From the sequence record PZ871096.1: a DNA stretch of 50,355 bases; one strand, written 5' to 3'. This document shows, piece by piece, positions 529-42,672 of this stretch (the stretch's first letter is position 1; the number at the start of each line of letters is the position of its first letter). A program made the position numbers and the translations under genes. The notes below the pieces were generated by a model. The model was not told the origin of the DNA. It did not search any database and worked only from the letters and a program-made list of their open reading frames with translations. This stretch comes from a phage.

Positions 529-2096
529 TGATCATATGGGAAGATTTGACGGCGGCGCAAAAGCGAGCCATTAAAGAAATCAGTGAGCATTCATTCGAAA
601 AGATGATTAGAATCTGGTTCCAGTTATTGCAGGGGCAAAAATTCCAGAGCAACTGGCATTTTAGCTTATTGTGCAGAGAGGTAGAGAAGATCATCAATGG
701 AGAGTCGCAGAATGTGATTTTCAACATTACGCCAGGTAGCGGTAAGACTGAGATTTTCTCGATCCACATGTCACCCTACGCGTCATTGAAAAGCCGGAAG
801 GTGAGAAATCTTAACCTTTCGTTTAGTGATGGCCTTGTCCAGCAAAACAGCAACCGGATAAAGGAGATTATTGGTTCTCCTGAGTGGCAAGAGCTATGGC
901 CTGGGAAACTGGCAAAGGCGAGCGCTAAAGATCTGATAGTCACCGAAGGCGGCAAGGTTAAATTGCAAGCTAACTCACGTTCTATTGGCGGCCAGGTAAC
1001 AGGTTTGCGTGGCGGCTATATGGACGATGGTTTTACTGGTATGCTGGTTCTTGACGATCCAGACAAGCCGGATGACATGCTTTCTAAGGTTAAGCGTGAG
1101 GCGATCCACATGCGGTTAAAAAACACAGTGCGATCGCGTCGAATGAAAGACACCACGCCGATTGTTATGGTGCAACAGCGACTACACGTTAATGATTCCA
1201 CCTGGTTTATGCTTAATGGCGGGATGGGTGGTATTGAGTTTAAAGTTGTGAGCATTCCGGCGCTGGTTACGGAAGAATACCGCGAAACGCTTCCTGATTG
1301 GTTGAAGCCTGAATTTGATCGTGATGTGCTGTCAAGTAAGCCAGTTATGATAGATGGCGTTGCTCATTATTCATTCTGGCCTGCGAAGGAAAGCGCGGAG
1401 GAGTTGCTCGCATTGCGCAATGCAGATCCTTACACGTTCGCCAGCCAATACCAACAGCAACCAATCGCGCTGGGCGGGAACGTGTTTAAAACAGAGTGGT
1501 TCCAGTATTACGGCAGCGGCGAAAAATGCGCACTACCAAAACCGGATCGCTTTGAATACACATTTATTACTGGAGATACCGCGCAGAAGGCCGGAGAGCT
1601 TAACGACTATTCAGTTTTTTGTTACTGGGGGATGTATAAGAATCGCGTTTACTTCATTGATGGCATTCGCGGAAAGTGGGAAGCGCCGGATCTTGAATTA
1701 AATTTTATTGCCTTCGTTAATCAGTGCTGGAAGCGCAATAAGGAGTGTGGCAGCTTGCGACGTATCCACATTGAGGATAAGGCCAGCGGCACTGGTTTGA
1801 TTCAGGGGGCCAAAAAGAAGATCCCGATTGATATAAATCCCGTTCAGCGAAGCAATGACAAGGTAACGCGAGCAATGGACGCCGCGCCAGTGATGAGGGC
1901 CGGACGTGTGGCGCTGCCAGAAAATCACCCCATGCTGCCTGAGATACTGGCAGAGGTTGCAGCATTCACTTTTGATGATTCTCATCCCCATGATGATATT
2001 GTCGATAATATAGTTGATGCTGTTAACGTCGAAATGAACTTGGCAGATGATCCGGTGGCAAGGATGAAAAAGCTGGCTGGTCTACGCAATAAATAG
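528..2096 (+). CDS. terL: terminase large subunit
   Basis: 522 aa; ATPase and nuclease-type motifs (e.g. GMLVLDDPDKPDD Walker B-like); first gene pair of the packaging module. Confidence 0.85.
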   Translation: MIIWEDLTAAQKRAIKEISEHSFEKMIRIWFQLLQGQKFQSNWHFSLLCREVEKIINGESQNVIFNITPGSGKTEIFSIHMSPYASLKSRKVRNLNLSFSDGLVQQNSNRIKEIIGSPEWQELWPGKLAKASAKDLIVTEGGKVKLQANSRSIGGQVTGLRGGYMDDGFTGMLVLDDPDKPDDMLSKVKREAIHMRLKNTVRSRRMKDTTPIVMVQQRLHVNDSTWFMLNGGMGGIEFKVVSIPALVTEEYRETLPDWLKPEFDRDVLSSKPVMIDGVAHYSFWPAKESAEELLALRNADPYTFASQYQQQPIALGGNVFKTEWFQYYGSGEKCALPKPDRFEYTFITGDTAQKAGELNDYSVFCYWGMYKNRVYFIDGIRGKWEAPDLELNFIAFVNQCWKRNKECGSLRRIHIEDKASGTGLIQGAKKKIPIDINPVQRSNDKVTRAMDAAPVMRAGRVALPENHPMLPEILAEVAAFTFDDSHPHDDIVDNIVDAVNVEMNLADDPVARMKKLAGLRNK

Positions 2097-2123
2097 CACT
2101 AATTGCTAAAAAGTTATATAATC

Positions 2124-2149
2124 AAGGCTGGATTTTTCCAGCCTTTTTT
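2124..2149 (+). terminator. intrinsic terminator-like hairpin between terL and portal
   Basis: AAGGCTGGA-tttt-TCCAGCCTT 9-bp stem followed by T6. Confidence 0.5.
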
Positions 2150-2166
2150 ATTATGGAGATTTGACG

Positions 2167-3459
2167 ATGAGTGAAAAAACAAGGCTAGTTAAGGCCGATG
2201 GATACAACGAGATTTTCAAGGGCAGCAAGGGCAATGGGCGTGTAGAGTTGCCTTTCTTTATGCAAGGGTTCGAATACACCACGCACGCTGATTTTTACAT
2301 TCGCGACGGACTAGCAAAACGAATTATCGACGTTGTTCCAGAAGAAATGGTGACGCCTGGATTTAATATTGATGGCGTGGAAGATGAGGAAGGTTTTAGA
2401 TCTTTGTGGGATGAGAAGCGACTAAGCGATAAAATCATTGATGCGCTTTGCTGGTCGCGTCTTTTTGGTGGCGCGGCAATCGTGGCAATCGTTCAGGATG
2501 GCAGGTCGTTAAAGTCACCTGTAGCGCCTGGCGCAATCCTTGAAGATGTTCGCGTTTACGATCGCTTTCAGGTTCGCGTAGAAAAGCGCGAAACTAATCC
2601 ACGCAAGGTACGATATGGTGAGCCGTTAATTTACACCATTTCACCTGGTGCGGACTTGCCAGAATATCAGGTTCACTATTCGCGAGTCTGTATTATCGAC
2701 GGTGAGCGGCTACCAAATCAGCGACGTCAGTCAAATGATGGTTGGGGTGAGTCGATCTTGAATAAGCGACTTGTTGAGGCTATTTGTGATTATAACTACT
2801 GCGAAAACTTAGCAACTCAATTGTTGCGACGTAAGCAACAGGCGGTATGGAAAGCCAAAGGTCTTGCCGATCTTTGTGATGATGATGATGGTGTTAACGC
2901 CGCACGTTTGCGCCTTGCTCAAGTTGATGATGAGGGTGGCGTAGGCCGTGCGATCGGCATTGATGCGGAAGATGAGGAATATGATGTTTTAAATTCTGAT
3001 ATTTCCGGCGTCGATTCATTCCTGGAAAAGAAGATGGATCGCATTGTATCTCTTTCCGGCATCCATGAAATCATCCTCAAAAATAAGAACGTTGGCGGTG
3101 TTAGCGCGAGCCAAAACACGGCGCTTGAAACCTTCTACAAGCTGATCGATCGAAAGAGAAAGGAGGAATACAAACCAATCCTTGAATTTCTGATCCCGTT
3201 CCTGATTCAAGAGGAAGAATGGAGCATTCAGTTTGCGCCGTTAAGCGTTCCAAGTGAAAAGGACCAGGCCGAGATCTTGAACAAGAATATTGATTCTTTG
3301 AGCAAGGCTATTGACGGTCAATTCATGGATACAGAGGAGGCGCGCGACACATTGCGAGCCATTGCGCCTAACGTTAAACTAAAAGACGGCAATAACATTA
3401 AATTACCTGAGCAGGACGTAGAGCCGGAGCCAGGAACAACCGAGGGTAACGATCAATGA
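2167..3459 (+). CDS. portal protein
   Basis: ORF-track frame 2161-3459; first ATG at 2167 with GGAG 8 nt upstream; about 430 aa directly after terminase, canonical position. Confidence 0.8.
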   Translation: MSEKTRLVKADGYNEIFKGSKGNGRVELPFFMQGFEYTTHADFYIRDGLAKRIIDVVPEEMVTPGFNIDGVEDEEGFRSLWDEKRLSDKIIDALCWSRLFGGAAIVAIVQDGRSLKSPVAPGAILEDVRVYDRFQVRVEKRETNPRKVRYGEPLIYTISPGADLPEYQVHYSRVCIIDGERLPNQRRQSNDGWGESILNKRLVEAICDYNYCENLATQLLRRKQQAVWKAKGLADLCDDDDGVNAARLRLAQVDDEGGVGRAIGIDAEDEEYDVLNSDISGVDSFLEKKMDRIVSLSGIHEIILKNKNVGGVSASQNTALETFYKLIDRKRKEEYKPILEFLIPFLIQEEEWSIQFAPLSVPSEKDQAEILNKNIDSLSKAIDGQFMDTEEARDTLRAIAPNVKLKDGNNIKLPEQDVEPEPGTTEGNDQ

Positions 3460-10430: not shown

Positions 10431-10503
10431 CATTCCTGTAAAATCAATCTATCAAATAAATTAATTCCACTTTTAACAAAAAGTGCTATAAGGAGATCTT
10501 GAG

Positions 10504-27650: not shown

Positions 27651-29648
27651 ATGATTCCAAATATCGAAAAACAAATATCAGCGTTAGGCGAGGCAGTAAT
27701 AAAAAGCATCCAAGAGCGATTCACGGTTGGCAATATAGTGCCTTATCCTTATCAGTGCGTTGCGTATGCCGAGATCGCAAAGCGCATGAAAAACTATGAG
27801 CATCCTTTCTTTGTTAAGGCTTCTGTGTCGGCTGGCAAAACATTGATGTTTGCGATGGTTGCGGCGCAATGCCGCAAAATGGGATTGAAAATGATGGTCC
27901 TTGCTCGCCAGGCTGAAATTGTTGATCAGGATTCTGAAGAGATCAGCAATCTTGGCGTGCCAAACTCAATCTATTGCGCCGGACTGAAAACAAAAAGCGC
28001 ATACTTTCCGATCGTAGTCGGTTCTGAGGGCACTGTAGTAAACGGATTGTTTAAGTCTTTAGGTGATTATGTTCCGCACGTTATCGGTATTGATGAATGT
28101 CACCAGGTGGATTGGGAGGATCTCGCGGACGCGATAGAAAATAATGAATCTTACCAGCAGATGACCACTAAGAAGGATTTGCCTGTACTGATTGGAGAAG
28201 AACAGCAATTTGATTCCAATGGCGATCCAATGTTCGGAACAGGACGCACACAGTACACGGTAATAATCATGGAAATGATGCGCAGGTGTCGCGAGGCATA
28301 CGGGCACGAATTGCGAATATTCGGTATGACTGGATCTGAATTTCGCGGCGTGGTTCCAATACTGGTTGAAGATAAGAACAAAAAGGGATTCTGGCGTGAG
28401 CAGGTGACTAACATAGACACAAACTACTTAATCAAATTCGGTTCTGTAGTGCCAACAAATTTCGGCGACGTAGGCGACCTGGGGTATGACCTTTCAGAGT
28501 TCGAAGCCAGTAGCGAGGATGGCGTTTCAGACTTTGACGCTAAAACATTGCGCAAGATGGAAGAAAAGATCCATCAAGACGCAACAATGACACAGAAAAT
28601 CATGGCTAAAGTCCATGAGATATGCAAAGACAGGAACGGAGTTTTAGTTACATGCGCAGGGGAAAGACACTGCAAGGAGGCCGCCGCCGCACTGCCGCCA
28701 GGCGTTGAATACAGGATCATAACTGGCAAGACTGGAGACAATCAGCGTAAAGAGTGGCTGAGGGAGGCATACGAGGGAAAAGTAAAATACATCTTCCAGG
28801 TACAGGCGCTTACCACTGGCGTTAACGTTCCGTTTTGGGATACTTCTGTAATACTGAGAAAGATAGGATCTCTAACATTGCTTATCCAGCTTTTGGGGCG
28901 CGGTATGCGACTGCTTAAGCAATGGCACATTGAGCAGGGATTCAAGAAAAAAGACCATCTTGTATTGGATTTTGCCGGTACTATGGATGAGTTAGGGGAT
29001 TTGTATTTCGATCCAATCCTTGAGCAAGCGCAATTCCAAAAGAGATTTACAAACGGGAAAGAGCCTAAGACTTGTCCGATATGTGGAACGCTAAACAGCT
29101 TTTACGCTCGCCGATGTATGCACGTAGACGATAACGGGAAGAGATGCGAGCATTTTTGGACTTACAGAATTTGCGAGGACCAAGTAGATCCGAGAACGAA
29201 AAAGATAATCAAGCGCGGTTGCGGAACAAAAAACGACGTAGTGGCGAGAGTATGCCGTTGTTGCGATATTTCTCTTGTCGATCCTAACGAGAAGTTAAGC
29301 GGCAAGCACTACACCAAAAACGATTGGTGCAACGTTAAATCTTTCCGCGTTGATATGACGAAAAACCAGAAAGGAATTGTTTTTTGCTATGAGCTTGAGG
29401 CCAACGGCGACACGTTCAAGGCATACGAAAGATTTTTCCCTGAGTCAGAAAGCAACATTTGCCGGACGATATGGAGAAAAATAGCATTGCAGCACATACC
29501 GGATCGCAAGATTGCTGGTATGGTGGCGAGCTATAGAAATGCGCGTAAAATAATGTCATACGCTCATCACATCATGCCTCCTGTACGCGTAACGCATCGC
29601 AAAAACGGCAAAGGTGAGGATAACATTGCAAAACGGGAGTTTGTTTAA
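27651..29648 (+). CDS. superfamily-2 DNA helicase with C-terminal zinc-ribbon
   Basis: 665 aa; Walker A (VSAGKT), DECH box (GIDECHQ), C-terminal CPICG...C..H cluster. Confidence 0.75.
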   Translation: MIPNIEKQISALGEAVIKSIQERFTVGNIVPYPYQCVAYAEIAKRMKNYEHPFFVKASVSAGKTLMFAMVAAQCRKMGLKMMVLARQAEIVDQDSEEISNLGVPNSIYCAGLKTKSAYFPIVVGSEGTVVNGLFKSLGDYVPHVIGIDECHQVDWEDLADAIENNESYQQMTTKKDLPVLIGEEQQFDSNGDPMFGTGRTQYTVIIMEMMRRCREAYGHELRIFGMTGSEFRGVVPILVEDKNKKGFWREQVTNIDTNYLIKFGSVVPTNFGDVGDLGYDLSEFEASSEDGVSDFDAKTLRKMEEKIHQDATMTQKIMAKVHEICKDRNGVLVTCAGERHCKEAAAALPPGVEYRIITGKTGDNQRKEWLREAYEGKVKYIFQVQALTTGVNVPFWDTSVILRKIGSLTLLIQLLGRGMRLLKQWHIEQGFKKKDHLVLDFAGTMDELGDLYFDPILEQAQFQKRFTNGKEPKTCPICGTLNSFYARRCMHVDDNGKRCEHFWTYRICEDQVDPRTKKIIKRGCGTKNDVVARVCRCCDISLVDPNEKLSGKHYTKNDWCNVKSFRVDMTKNQKGIVFCYELEANGDTFKAYERFFPESESNICRTIWRKIALQHIPDRKIAGMVASYRNARKIMSYAHHIMPPVRVTHRKNGKGEDNIAKREFV

Positions 29649-31716: not shown

Positions 31717-32832
31717 ATGAAAAATGTAAAAATTACAGATGAGCAATTCAAGATCGAACGGGCGGCAGGTAAGACATATAAACAGATCGCTCAAGAGTAC
31801 GGAATGAATGTGAGAAGCGTCGAGCGTCGCGCGGCGCGTCTTGCAAAGCAAGGACAGTTATCGACCATCGGAGCGCCTGGTTTTGGTGTTCATGGTGAGT
31901 CAGTAATGACTGACAAAGAAGGAAATATAATCCTCAAGTGGACCAAAACCAGCAAGGATAAAGAGCAATTAGAGGCACTGATGCGCGCAGCTATGGAGGC
32001 GTTTAGCGAGGAAGTGCCGCGATTAGATCCAGTTCCATTGCAGGAGCGTAATTATAATGAAACGCTTTCATTGTATCCGATCTTTGACATGCACTTAGGC
32101 GCTATGGCCCATAAGCACGAATGCGGCGAAAATTGGGATACTGCGACGGCGGAGCGCGTTATGAATAACTTTATCGACTATGCTTTGATGTGCGCACCGG
32201 ACAGCGAAAAGGCTGTTATCCTGATTGGTGGCGATATGCTGCATAGCGACGGCCTGGAGGCGGTGACACCTGCAAGCGGTCACGTACTTGATCAAGATAG
32301 CCGATATGCAAAATTGGTTTACGTTGCAATACGTGCAATGCGCCGCGCAATTAATAAAATGCTGTTAAAGCATAAACATGTTGAGGTGCAGATCGTAGAG
32401 GGTAATCACGACCAATCAGGAATGATTTGGCTACGCGCAGCAATGGCGGCAGCATATGAGAACGAGCCGCGCGTTTACGTTGATGTTTCTCCTCGCGTTG
32501 TTCACCACACGCAATACGGAAAAACTTTCCTTGCGTACCATCACGGGCACACAGTGCGTAAACCGGAGACTTTGCTAATGATGTGCGCGTCAGATTGGCG
32601 GGAGGACTTCGGAAACTCAAAAACGATGTATGCGCACGTAGGGCACTGGCATCACCAGACCGTGACAGAAACGTCGCTTGGCATCGTGGAGGTGCATAGC
32701 ACCCTGGCGGCAAAAGACGCATACGCCGCGCGAGGTGGCTGGAGATCTCGACGCCGTGCAGCGGTTATCATTTACGACAAAGAGCATGGAGAAGTCGGGC
32801 GATTTGTTCACTATCCAGAAATGATGAATTGA
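31717..32832 (+). CDS. calcineurin-like metallophosphoesterase with N-terminal HTH-like region
   Basis: ORF-track frame 31567-32832; ATG 31717; phosphoesterase motifs DMH, GGDMLHSD, VEGNHDQ, YHHGH, GHWHH; N-terminal KTYKQIAQEYGMNVRSVERRAARL. Confidence 0.6.
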   Translation: MKNVKITDEQFKIERAAGKTYKQIAQEYGMNVRSVERRAARLAKQGQLSTIGAPGFGVHGESVMTDKEGNIILKWTKTSKDKEQLEALMRAAMEAFSEEVPRLDPVPLQERNYNETLSLYPIFDMHLGAMAHKHECGENWDTATAERVMNNFIDYALMCAPDSEKAVILIGGDMLHSDGLEAVTPASGHVLDQDSRYAKLVYVAIRAMRRAINKMLLKHKHVEVQIVEGNHDQSGMIWLRAAMAAAYENEPRVYVDVSPRVVHHTQYGKTFLAYHHGHTVRKPETLLMMCASDWREDFGNSKTMYAHVGHWHHQTVTETSLGIVEVHSTLAAKDAYAARGGWRSRRRAAVIIYDKEHGEVGRFVHYPEMMN

Positions 32833-34511: not shown

Positions 34512-34907
34512 TCATGTGATATTGAATTTACGGCGCAGTGCTTCAAGATCTTGTCTATTAGCTTTTGCCTGGAACAATTCATCATCTCCCATCTCCCCTA
34601 TTCTAGCCATATCCCTGATCCAGTCGTTGCGCATACCATCCAGGCTATACAATTCGAATCCGAAAGGCCGCTTTGACGATCCTTTGGACCAGTATTTTCC
34701 GCAGACCCCATCTATATAACCAGCCGTCATCATTCTTGCGCAAAATTCCTTAGATGCAAGGCTGGCGAACATTCGCGGCGTAAGTCCGGCGGCCCGTGCG
34801 AGCCGCTCACATTCTCTATGCTGATAGATAAATTTGGCTATGTGCTGCCTGTTAAACCAGTCGTATGACTCACACCATTTATACAGATCAAGCAAAAACA
34901 TAATCAT
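34512..34907 (-). CDS. hypothetical protein
   Basis: 131 aa, overlaps stop of upstream ATPase gene. Confidence 0.45.
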   Translation of the reverse strand: MIMFLLDLYKWCESYDWFNRQHIAKFIYQHRECERLARAAGLTPRMFASLASKEFCARMMTAGYIDGVCGKYWSKGSSKRPFGFELYSLDGMRNDWIRDMARIGEMGDDELFQAKANRQDLEALRRKFNIT

Positions 34908-41784: not shown

Positions 41785-41824
41785 CACTTTTTGTTAAAAC
41801 GCCAGGCGCGAAGCCTGGCATAAT
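41781..41824 (+). promoter_or_regulatory. conserved-box promoter
   Basis: ATAGCACTTTTTGTTAAAAC, spacer hairpin GCCAGGC-gcgaa-GCCTGGC, CATAAT. Confidence 0.5.
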
Positions 41825-41856
41825 AGCCTCATCGAAACGAGATTGAGGAAACAAAA

Positions 41857-42057: not shown

Positions 42058-42243
42058 ATGAAAACGAAATTAGTCCATAAATCAGAAATCAAGATCGGCG
42101 ATACTGTGATTCACAACGGCGAGCTTAGAACGGTTGGCAAAGAGTCAATAAGCCACGATGAATTTATGGGGATCTTGTTGTTCGGTGACTCTTATCGTCT
42201 TGGTTACAAGATGGTTGAGCTTGTGGAAGAGGTAAAATTCTAA
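42058..42243 (+). CDS. hypothetical small protein
   Basis: 61 aa ORF. Confidence 0.45.
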   Translation: MKTKLVHKSEIKIGDTVIHNGELRTVGKESISHDEFMGILLFGDSYRLGYKMVELVEEVKF

Positions 42244-42287
42244 ATAGCACTTTTTGTTAAAACTCAAAAACGATAACCAGGCATAAT
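42244..42287 (+). promoter_or_regulatory. conserved-box promoter driving a long GC-rich leader
   Basis: ATAGCACTTTTTGTTAAAAC, 18-nt spacer, CATAAT (42282-42287). Confidence 0.5.
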
Positions 42288-42293
42288 ACACAC

Positions 42294-42489
42294 ATAGACG
42301 GGCGGCAAGGATTGCTGCGGGAGAGGAGCGACGCAGGGGCTTGATCGAAGTGTCAGGATTCCCAACCGTGAGGCCAGAACTATCACACTCGCCACCAGGC
42401 AGAACGCTAGATAGGTCACTGAGCTGAGGCTGCCGACGAAGTGAAGCCCGTCACCAAAGATTAAACGGTTATTTATGTGAAAGGGGTTA
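42294..42489 (+). other. GC-rich ~195-nt untranslated leader, candidate structured RNA element
   Basis: no ORF with SD in any + frame; long-range complementarity GACGGGC (42297-42303) / GCCCGTC (42446-42452); local stem CTGCG/CGCAG. Confidence 0.35.
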
Positions 42490-42672
42490 ATGATGGATAA
42501 GATCATCAAAATGAGCGAAGTCAAGCCGGGAATGATGGTTAAGTTTGCTGGCAAATATCGCCTAGTGCTGGATAACTGCCGCAAAGAGAACATTCTTACA
42601 ATTCGTGTAAATGGCAAGGCGCAGCTATTCGCCCCTAACGCAGATATTGACGTTGAAGTTAGAATTAAGTAA
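42490..42672 (+). CDS. hypothetical small protein
   Basis: 60 aa ORF. Confidence 0.45.
   Translation: MMDKIIKMSEVKPGMMVKFAGKYRLVLDNCRKENILTIRVNGKAQLFAPNADIDVEVRIK

Follow-up and report, generated by a model that had tools for sequence, protein, structure and literature searches.

In the 50,355-nucleotide (nt) phage sequence PZ871096.1, the whole of which is called the window here, one promoter is followed by a long, GC-rich leader (42294-42489) before the first gene begins, which raises the question of what this leader is and what it does. The phage is a T1-like Escherichia phage of the genus Warwickvirus, with 96-99% identity to tunus, swan01 and ityhuna across the region. An initial annotation, made from the letters of the window alone, had suggested a cis-regulatory RNA or a small phage non-coding RNA. 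Based on comparison with relatives, we conclude that the plus strand of 42297-42452 encodes a structured RNA that belongs to a conserved family. In its fold, helix P1 closes a junction that carries two hairpins, P2 and P3, and a long arm, P4 (Table 1).

The fold was assessed in 31 distinct homologues, which fall into only five or six clades. As the clades are so few and the alignments were fitted to the model, the shuffle counts given here are not probabilities; the real evidence for the fold is the independent double changes. P1 is found in all 31 homologues with a length of 5-10 bp, and is built from 14 different arm pairs (for instance GGGCGGCG/CGCCGCCC, GTCGACAG/TTGTCGAC and GACGGGTG/CACCTGTC); a fifteenth, GGCAG/CTGCC, is present in the divergent T1-like variant L074. 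The stem of P2 has been rebuilt by clade, being GGCAA/UUGCU in the window, UGC/GCA in Dhillonvirus and AGCUAUA/UAUAGCU in L074, and its apical AGGA is kept in all of them. Three pairs of P3 changed on both sides in separate lineages, namely C-G to U-A in L074, U-A to G-U in Lumpael and G-C to A-U in KMI8. In the inner helix and terminal hairpin of P4, where every cell is paired, up to five pair types occur per position, and within Dhillonvirus alone one P4 pair varies between A-U, U-A and C-G. Together, P3 and P4 have 98.3% of their cells paired and 10 pairs with changes on both sides, a result that none of 500 shuffles reached, while controls with slid partners gave 36-55%. For the whole structure in the model-based alignment, 79% of cells were paired versus 67.0 +/- 0.6 in shuffles, 18 pairs showed double changes and the covariation score was 0.310 versus 0.113, again reached by 0/500 shuffles. 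P1 and P2 are under-counted in this alignment, because their register differs between clades. The comparison across related phages therefore supports the structured RNA that had been suspected.

Folding the window sequence by itself gave a different picture. The single-sequence fold was not unusually stable, with 189 of 200 shuffles folding at least as well (z = +1.42), so stability gives no support to the RNA. The long-range complement GACGGGC/GCCCGTC, now recognised as the two strands of P1, had been placed exactly, at 42297-42303 and 42446-42452. A 7-bp complement at least 100 nt apart arises by chance in 13% of shuffles, and thus this pairing is not beyond chance in the window sequence alone; its reality follows from the covariation in relatives. 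A local stem proposed inside the leader fared less well: CGCAG is indeed at 42332-42336, but CTGCG is found at 42315-42319, one base away from where it had been put, and the stem is not conserved in the alignments of the other clades.

Besides the helices, about 60 positions are invariant, most of them in junctions (GGAGAGG, ACGC, GGGGC, GGAUUCC, AACCGUGA, CAC, AGAACGC, AGGC and CCGACGA). GGAGAGG, AACCGUGA, AGAACGC and CCGACGAAG are core segments of the RNA. The window copy carries one private substitution, G42432, where 33 of 34 homologues have A. Downstream of P1, most clades have an A/C-rich tail. In most clades we also observed ACCA or ACCU, or the same motif shifted by one base, 3' of P1 (42453-42456 in the window), the exceptions being L013, KMI8, L020 and L016; the motif recalls the tRNA or 4.5S-type 3' end that is recognised by RNase P.

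In every clade, a -10-like hexamer is located 7-10 nt 5' of P1 and the element lies on the strand of the downstream genes, indicating that it forms the 5' end of the transcript. In the window, the hexamer CATAAT and the ATG at 42490 were confirmed at the positions given initially, and a second ATG follows at 42493. The upstream promoter box belongs to a motif, GCACTTTTTGTTAAAA, with 20 matches in the window versus 1.5 expected by chance. The leader is GC-rich, as had been noticed (0.61 at 42300-42449 versus 0.37-0.45 in flanking sequence), and it is also the single long leader of its kind: other gene-preceding boxes have leaders of about 30-45 nt, and a covariance model of the RNA found exactly one copy in the window (42289-42464, 170.8 bits).

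Could the conserved element instead be a short protein-coding gene, on either strand, or a site acting at the DNA level? Several coding sequences (CDSs) have been annotated over it, including CDS0077 of ExeQuayColi (OR896819, minus strand), QIG65642 of PT1 (MT012302), an N-terminal extension of 22664B1_067 (MZ234008) and a "DNA methyltransferase" in NC_054892, and in the window an open reading frame (ORF) of 158 amino acids (aa) spans the element on the minus strand. However, none of the frames stays open throughout the 31 variants (17/31 for the best one), and the clades are separated by indels of 1-2 nt, which are not multiples of three; for both reasons the annotated CDSs are probably spurious. 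In addition, base pairing is preserved by double substitutions in both strands of a helix (for example CCAGG/CCUGG to CCUGG/CCAGG to CCCGG/CCGGG), which alter any encoded residues. Since such compensatory changes would alter the residues non-conservatively, the CDS calls are again probably artefacts. The G-U pairs (for example U-G in P3) are strand-specific, being possible on the plus strand only. We consider it highly improbable that the element is anything other than an RNA, and judged by the sequences the coding alternative is effectively refuted. This agrees with the initial view of the leader as non-coding: among its forward ORFs, just one reaches 20 aa, a 28-aa TTG ORF at 42341-42427. 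As a side observation, an AUG in the P2 region of Dhillonvirus opens a frame through the whole element into gp44. An IS200-type element beside the "transposase" gp45 of HK578 was considered and rejected, as gp45 is only a helix-turn-helix protein and the strand-specific fold belongs to the opposite strand.

Furthermore, we searched for known RNAs. The whole window had no match in Rfam 15 at the gathering score, and no family was matched even at E<=10 by the window, HK578 and MQ-4 copies, which represent three subtypes. ARAGORN found no tRNA or transfer-messenger RNA gene in the window, as the initial annotation had expected, and no T-arm precedes the 3' strand of P1 in the aligned homologues. 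Literature searches by sequence strings and by topic yielded no description of the RNA in the papers covered; one 9-mer match was an unrelated guide sequence. The RNA is a new family, outside the Rfam families and outside put, EAR and canT.

A 205-nt query matched 172 GenBank phage records, and queries with two other subtypes returned the same 172. Carriers are a subset of Warwickvirus (about 20 records, at least 95% identical), other Drexlerviridae (PHB17 of Changchunvirus, Motto and KMI8), apparently most Dhillonvirus (about 125 records, including HK578, JL1 and Sodalis phage SO-1), Jilinvirus-like phages (PT1, HeidiAbel_Bas97 and BUCT618) and the MQ-4 group (MQ-4, KA2-1, Arya, IME279, sortkaff and Lumpael). 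A further 20 IMG/VR contigs came from pattern scans, as did Lumpael (L043) and L074, 14 true metagenome contigs and one phage-like contig filed under a bacterial metagenome-assembled genome. Apart from Lumpael and L074, wider scans of viral contigs, metagenomes and genomes returned the same few clades only, and a scan with a loose pattern gave chance matches only. A host-derived or prophage origin was rejected, as neither plasmids nor the 5,426 complete E. coli genomes searched contained a match to the RNA motif. In Serratia phage MQ-4 (L198), whose baseplate and tail genes are of the P2 type and which also has an ogr/delta-like gene, the RNA is located downstream of the helicase gene; the P2-type tail genes imply that the element crosses tail morphotypes and is not confined to siphoviruses. 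Three records with non-enteric host labels, ON843697 (Pseudomonas phage Motto), MG065648 (Campylobacter phage A144) and OQ221563 (Acinetobacter phage NJ01), harbour elements typical of T1-like or Dhillonvirus coliphages; either mistaken labels or contaminated records may account for this.

The genes that follow the RNA do not share a family. The first downstream genes belong to at least eight unrelated PHROGs, or to none: phrog_8121 in the window, and phrog_3127, 2684, 4344, 27467, 20174 or none elsewhere. The phrog_8121 gene of the window probably starts at ATG 42493 and not at 42490, because the homologues found by tblastn align from residue 2 onwards and the start in Webervirus Skenny is at the equivalent ATGGATAAG. 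This 60-aa gene was found in 187 records, of which 143 are Klebsiella phages (Webervirus) without the RNA and with an ordinary 35-nt leader. A partnership of the RNA with the 60-aa protein was therefore rejected, the protein being mostly found without it. One homologue record is labelled "anti-RM protein stp1". At the corresponding position, relatives have the same RNA, a short ordinary leader or a remnant hairpin, and not the protein-coding gene that would have spoken against the initial proposal. The ribosome-binding (Shine-Dalgarno, SD) region showed no common pattern of sequestration across clades, with unpaired probabilities of 0.34-0.76; that of the window is predicted to be mostly unpaired (0.76). 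Likewise, no conserved terminator, hairpin, U-tract or processing signal was found 3' of P1.

Common to the contexts is that the RNA heads a transcription unit, and the clearest case is a Dhillonvirus. In HK578, the RNA heads a 12-kb replication operon of 19 co-oriented genes, including those for an exonuclease, a single-stranded DNA-binding protein (SSB), a DNA polymerase, a helicase and methylases, and is preceded by the promoter TTGACT-17-TAATAT. Three strong predicted terminators, each a hairpin with a U-tract, lie within this operon (Table 1), each abutting the next ribosome site: that of gp43 (leading to the exonuclease), of gp39 (to the DNA polymerase) and of gp34 (to the helicase). A simple scan showed no promoter-like site between the promoter of the RNA and position 32822; a second promoter-like site, TTGACC-17-TAGATT, was seen ahead of the SSB gene. 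Four other Dhillonvirus contigs also have the first two terminators, and in most other clades strong same-strand terminators are located 0.5-2 kb downstream of the RNA.

The layout of HK578 matches the early operons of lambda and HK022, and the conserved leader RNA is the obvious candidate for the antitermination site. We therefore favour, at a probability of about 0.35 and by analogy, the reading that the nascent RNA is a cis-acting processive antiterminator, functionally like HK022 put but not homologous to it. On emerging from RNA polymerase, the RNA would bind a conserved host machine; a conserved partner is suggested by the strong conservation of unpaired nucleotides across otherwise unrelated phages (a 52-nt core is 92% identical between Drexlerviridae and Dhillonvirus). 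It would then stay on the elongating host polymerase and make it resistant to terminators and polarity, so that polymerases from the promoter of the RNA could transcribe the whole operon. Such an RNA would act in cis on its own transcription unit and not on one particular gene, as is also indicated by the unrelated first genes and by the lack of consistent sequestration of the ribosome site. There are precedents for this type of action. The putL site begins at the 5' end of the PL transcript and needs no phage protein (PMC9378689), and canT of Tn916 is a cis-acting antiterminator RNA in a mobile element; like the Bacillus EAR element, it is a structured RNA of at least 100 nt that lets polymerase pass several terminators in cis (PMC11658703). 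The present RNA resembles putL and putR in being phage-encoded, in its location at the start of an early transcript from a sigma-70 promoter, in its independence from the identity of the downstream gene and, in Dhillonvirus, in the terminators of the downstream operon. It resembles EAR and canT as a structured RNA in mobile elements or long operons. In contrast to these, it has no Rfam match to EAR, whose hosts, like those of canT, are Firmicutes, and canT was defined on a 452-nt fragment.

Several observations weigh against an antiterminator. Put is about 70 nt long, consists of two stem-loops and belongs to lambdoid temperate phages, whereas the present RNA is about 155 nt long, has four helices and occurs in non-lambdoid phages. 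Homology with put was rejected, since our model found nothing in HK022 20000-40751, the region with putL and putR (best E = 0.34). As for the window, its plus strand has no terminator-like site from 36.4 kb to 50.28 kb, the operon behind the RNA lacks a predicted terminator for 8 kb, and further box promoters are present downstream. In this operon, the role of the element may be limited to Rho-dependent polarity; alternatively, the element may be travelling, partly redundant, with a mobile promoter-leader cassette. Terminators are also not demonstrably concentrated behind the RNA: the background of the detector is 0.28 sites per kb per strand, and about 5 of 15 contexts have a terminator within 0.75 kb versus about 3 expected, an enrichment that is not significant. 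In several clades (L016, BUCT618), the terminator may simply end a promoter-genes-terminator cassette. Moreover, terminators may leak, and a simple scan may overlook promoters. Finally, tinuso and tonn, which are close relatives, lack both the RNA core and the 60-aa gene, showing that the element is dispensable in such phages.

The invariant junctions also invite another interpretation, in which the leader is riboswitch-like or senses a host factor, with an aptamer closed by P1 whose binding alters the translation or stability of the first cistrons. Its anatomy is aptamer-like, as in orphan riboswitch candidates: a multi-helix junction closed by P1 in the 5' untranslated region, with invariant junctions, variable covarying peripheral helices and GNRA loops on the long arm, located 36-61 nt ahead of the first start codon when measured from the J4/1 motif CCGACGARG. 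GGGGCY can pair either locally with UCCC in P3 or over a long range with RGGCYaCC (AGGCYACC in J4/1 of the window); these pairings are mutually exclusive, and each is compatible with 100% or nearly 100% of the sequences, which gives them a switch-like look. In Motto, C16, G30 and G162 are altered together. The long-range pairing holds in 100% of 204 cells, yet it changes on one side only, as alternative pairings here do; RGC:GCY is also 100% paired and includes an A-U to G-C change. For all junction candidates (GGGGCY:RGGCYaCC, RGC:GCY and UCAGG:CC-UGA), the columns are invariant or follow the split between clades. A gene-specific riboswitch is unlikely, because the downstream genes differ, without a common family or theme, and no conserved expression platform, be it a terminator or an SD-sequestering structure, was recognised after P1. 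The similarity search against Rfam riboswitches was negative for all three subtypes, and the distribution is narrow, being restricted to phages of Enterobacterales. We regard a sensing leader as possible, if somewhat unlikely. Its stronger form, a true phage riboswitch or aptamer, is quite unlikely; the RNA would respond to a molecule of host state or immune signalling, or else to a conserved protein of the host, by switching on a downstream accessory or anti-defence cassette or the replication operon. If true, this would mean that unrelated phages exchange a sensor as a mobile promoter-leader module.

The invariant AGGA of P2 points in a further direction. The repeat consensus of CsrB is CAGGA(U/C/A)G, and the P2 loop, CAGGAUG or CAGGACG in most clades, matches it in a short hairpin like those of CsrB and RsmZ. 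Up to four GGA motifs are found inside 55 nt. Conceivably, cleavage within the A/U-rich linker releases the 5' domain as a free RNA of about 160 nt, which acts in trans as a decoy or sponge for a host factor, such as CsrA, or for a defence system. A compact domain closed by P1, followed by an A/C/U-rich single strand that often includes ACCA or ACCU, would suit such release, and the independence from the downstream gene fits as well. However, only one hairpin is invariant: the second CAGGAU is paired within helix P3 and has become CAGAAU in L074 by a compensated pair change. This weakens a two-site CsrA clamp, and most of the conserved core is unrelated to GGA motifs. As the element is always fused to an mRNA and has neither a terminator nor a conserved processing signal after P1, a trans-acting RNA seems unlikely.

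The long arm was compared with the nut sites of lambda, where the order is PL-nutL-N-tL1. In Dhillonvirus, the order of promoter, RNA, first gene and terminator mirrors this layout, the tip of P4 is a short stem with a GNRA-type loop that resembles boxB, and the peripheral helices vary by clade. One could thus imagine that the core recruits host Nus factors and that a clade-specific hairpin (the tip of P4, P2 or P1) binds a phage antiterminator protein, possibly the product of the first gene. Against this, the first genes are unrelated and none is a conserved N-like gene, some clades having products that resemble lipoproteins or membrane peptides. The leader has no boxA-like GCUCUU, its core is much larger than a nut site, and the P4 loop, GNRA-type in most clades, is ACCA in the Warwickvirus copy of the window. 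Together, this makes a nut-like site distinctly unlikely.

A passive role at the 5' end was considered as well, either guarding the transcript from RppH and RNase E or shielding a long untranslated leader from Rho. P1 starts 0-4 nt from the predicted transcription start, and tinuso and tonn, which lack the core, retain at the same promoter a P1-like hairpin, GGGCG-GCACGGCGU-CGCCC. A simple hairpin would suffice for such protection, leaving unexplained both the conserved four-helix fold and the roughly 60 unpaired nucleotides that are invariant across phage families, and we find a purely passive element just as doubtful as a nut-like one. The form in tinuso and tonn has the appearance of an internal deletion. 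It is flanked by the sequences of the MQ-4-type element and not by those of the type in the window, suggesting separate acquisitions or deletions at the same promoter. Judging from these sequence comparisons, the element behaves as an optional, horizontally exchanged promoter-leader cassette.

Table 1. Coordinates of the RNA, its promoter and related features in the window, HK578 and tinuso.
Feature	Sequence	Position	Strand	Remarks
Promoter box AATAGCACTTTTTGTTAAAA	window	42243-42262	+	repeated phage box; -10-like hexamer about 22-24 nt further 3'
-10-like hexamer CATAAT	window	42282-42287	+	read from sequence
Transcription start	window	about 42293-42295 (about 42294)	+	predicted from promoter geometry; 2-4 nt 5' of P1
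Whole motif, about 155 nt	window	42297-42452	+	covariation in relatives
P1, 5' strand GACGGGC	window	42297-42303	+	pairs with 42446-42452
P2 hairpin GGCAA-GGA-UUGCU	window	42304-42316	+	apical AGGA invariant
Junction J2/3 GCGGGAGAGGAGCGACGCA	window	42317-42335	+	includes invariant GGAGAGG and ACGC
P3 hairpin GGGGCUUGAU-CGAAGU-GUCAGG-AU-UCCC	window	42336-42363	+	96.8% of cells paired
Junction J3/4 AACCGUGA	window	42364-42371	+	invariant in 31/31 sequences
P4 long arm	window	42372-42426	+	outer pairs GG/CU, CAG/CUG
P4 inner helix CUAUC/GAUAG	window	42380-42384/42410-42414	+	100% paired
P4 internal loop	window			CAC on one side, AGAACGC on the other; invariant
P4 terminal hairpin	window	42388-42402	+	100% paired
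Junction J4/1 AGGCUGCCGACGAAG-UGAA	window	42427-42445	+	alignment columns
P1, 3' strand GCCCGUC	window	42446-42452	+	followed by ACCA
A/C-rich linker, purine-rich ribosome site AAAGGGG and start of first gene	window	42453-42492	+	read from sequence
First downstream gene, phrog_8121, 59-60 aa	window	42493-42672 (ATG 42490 alternative)	+	ORF and homologues
Predicted terminator 1 GGCCCGC...GCGGGCC-UCUUUUU	HK578 (L197)	34712-34731	-	free energy (dG) -15.8; 48-nt gap gp44/gp43
Predicted terminator 2 AGCCCGC...GCGGGCU-UUUU	HK578 (L197)	31969-31988	-	dG -13.8; 58-nt gap gp40/gp39
Predicted terminator 3 GGCGGGC...CCCGCC-AUUUUU	HK578 (L197)	28640-28656	-	43-nt gap gp35/gp34
Remnant hairpin	tinuso (L002)	1791-1829		equivalent to window 42290-42470

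We also observed some features of the promoters elsewhere in the window. The box ATAGCACTTTTTGTTAAAA occurs at about 18 sites (for instance 30067, 31138, 37212 on the minus strand, 41784, 42247, 45437 and 48233), about 22-24 nt 5' of a -10-like hexamer; its TTGTTA is not a -35 element, because it is too distant from that hexamer. The spacer of several copies consists of an inverted repeat, such as GCCAGGCGCGAAGCCTGGCATAAT at 41800-41826, with a 3' arm that reaches into the -10 element, and the box with this spacer looks like an operator or a structured promoter element. At 2096-2170 (plus strand), a box and TATAAT are directly followed by a hairpin that resembles a terminator and has a T run, GGCTGGATTTTTCCAGCC-TTTTTTATT, ahead of an ATG near 2170; this hairpin could be a promoter-proximal terminator or attenuator. 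A similar arrangement of box and terminator is present at 10471 on the minus strand.

The RNA described here is carried by well over 100 cultured coliphages, HK578 and members of the BASEL collection among them. It stands at the head of early, accessory or replication operons, where it either lacks an annotation or is wrongly listed as small "hypothetical proteins". The covariance model lets annotators avoid such spurious ORF calls over the element. A role as sensor or decoy would make the RNA a new type of interface between phage and host. A role in antitermination would add a second class of RNAs, unrelated to the first, that reprogramme the RNA polymerase of E. coli without a dedicated protein, and would explain how the DNA polymerase and helicase of Dhillonvirus are expressed across three strong terminators.

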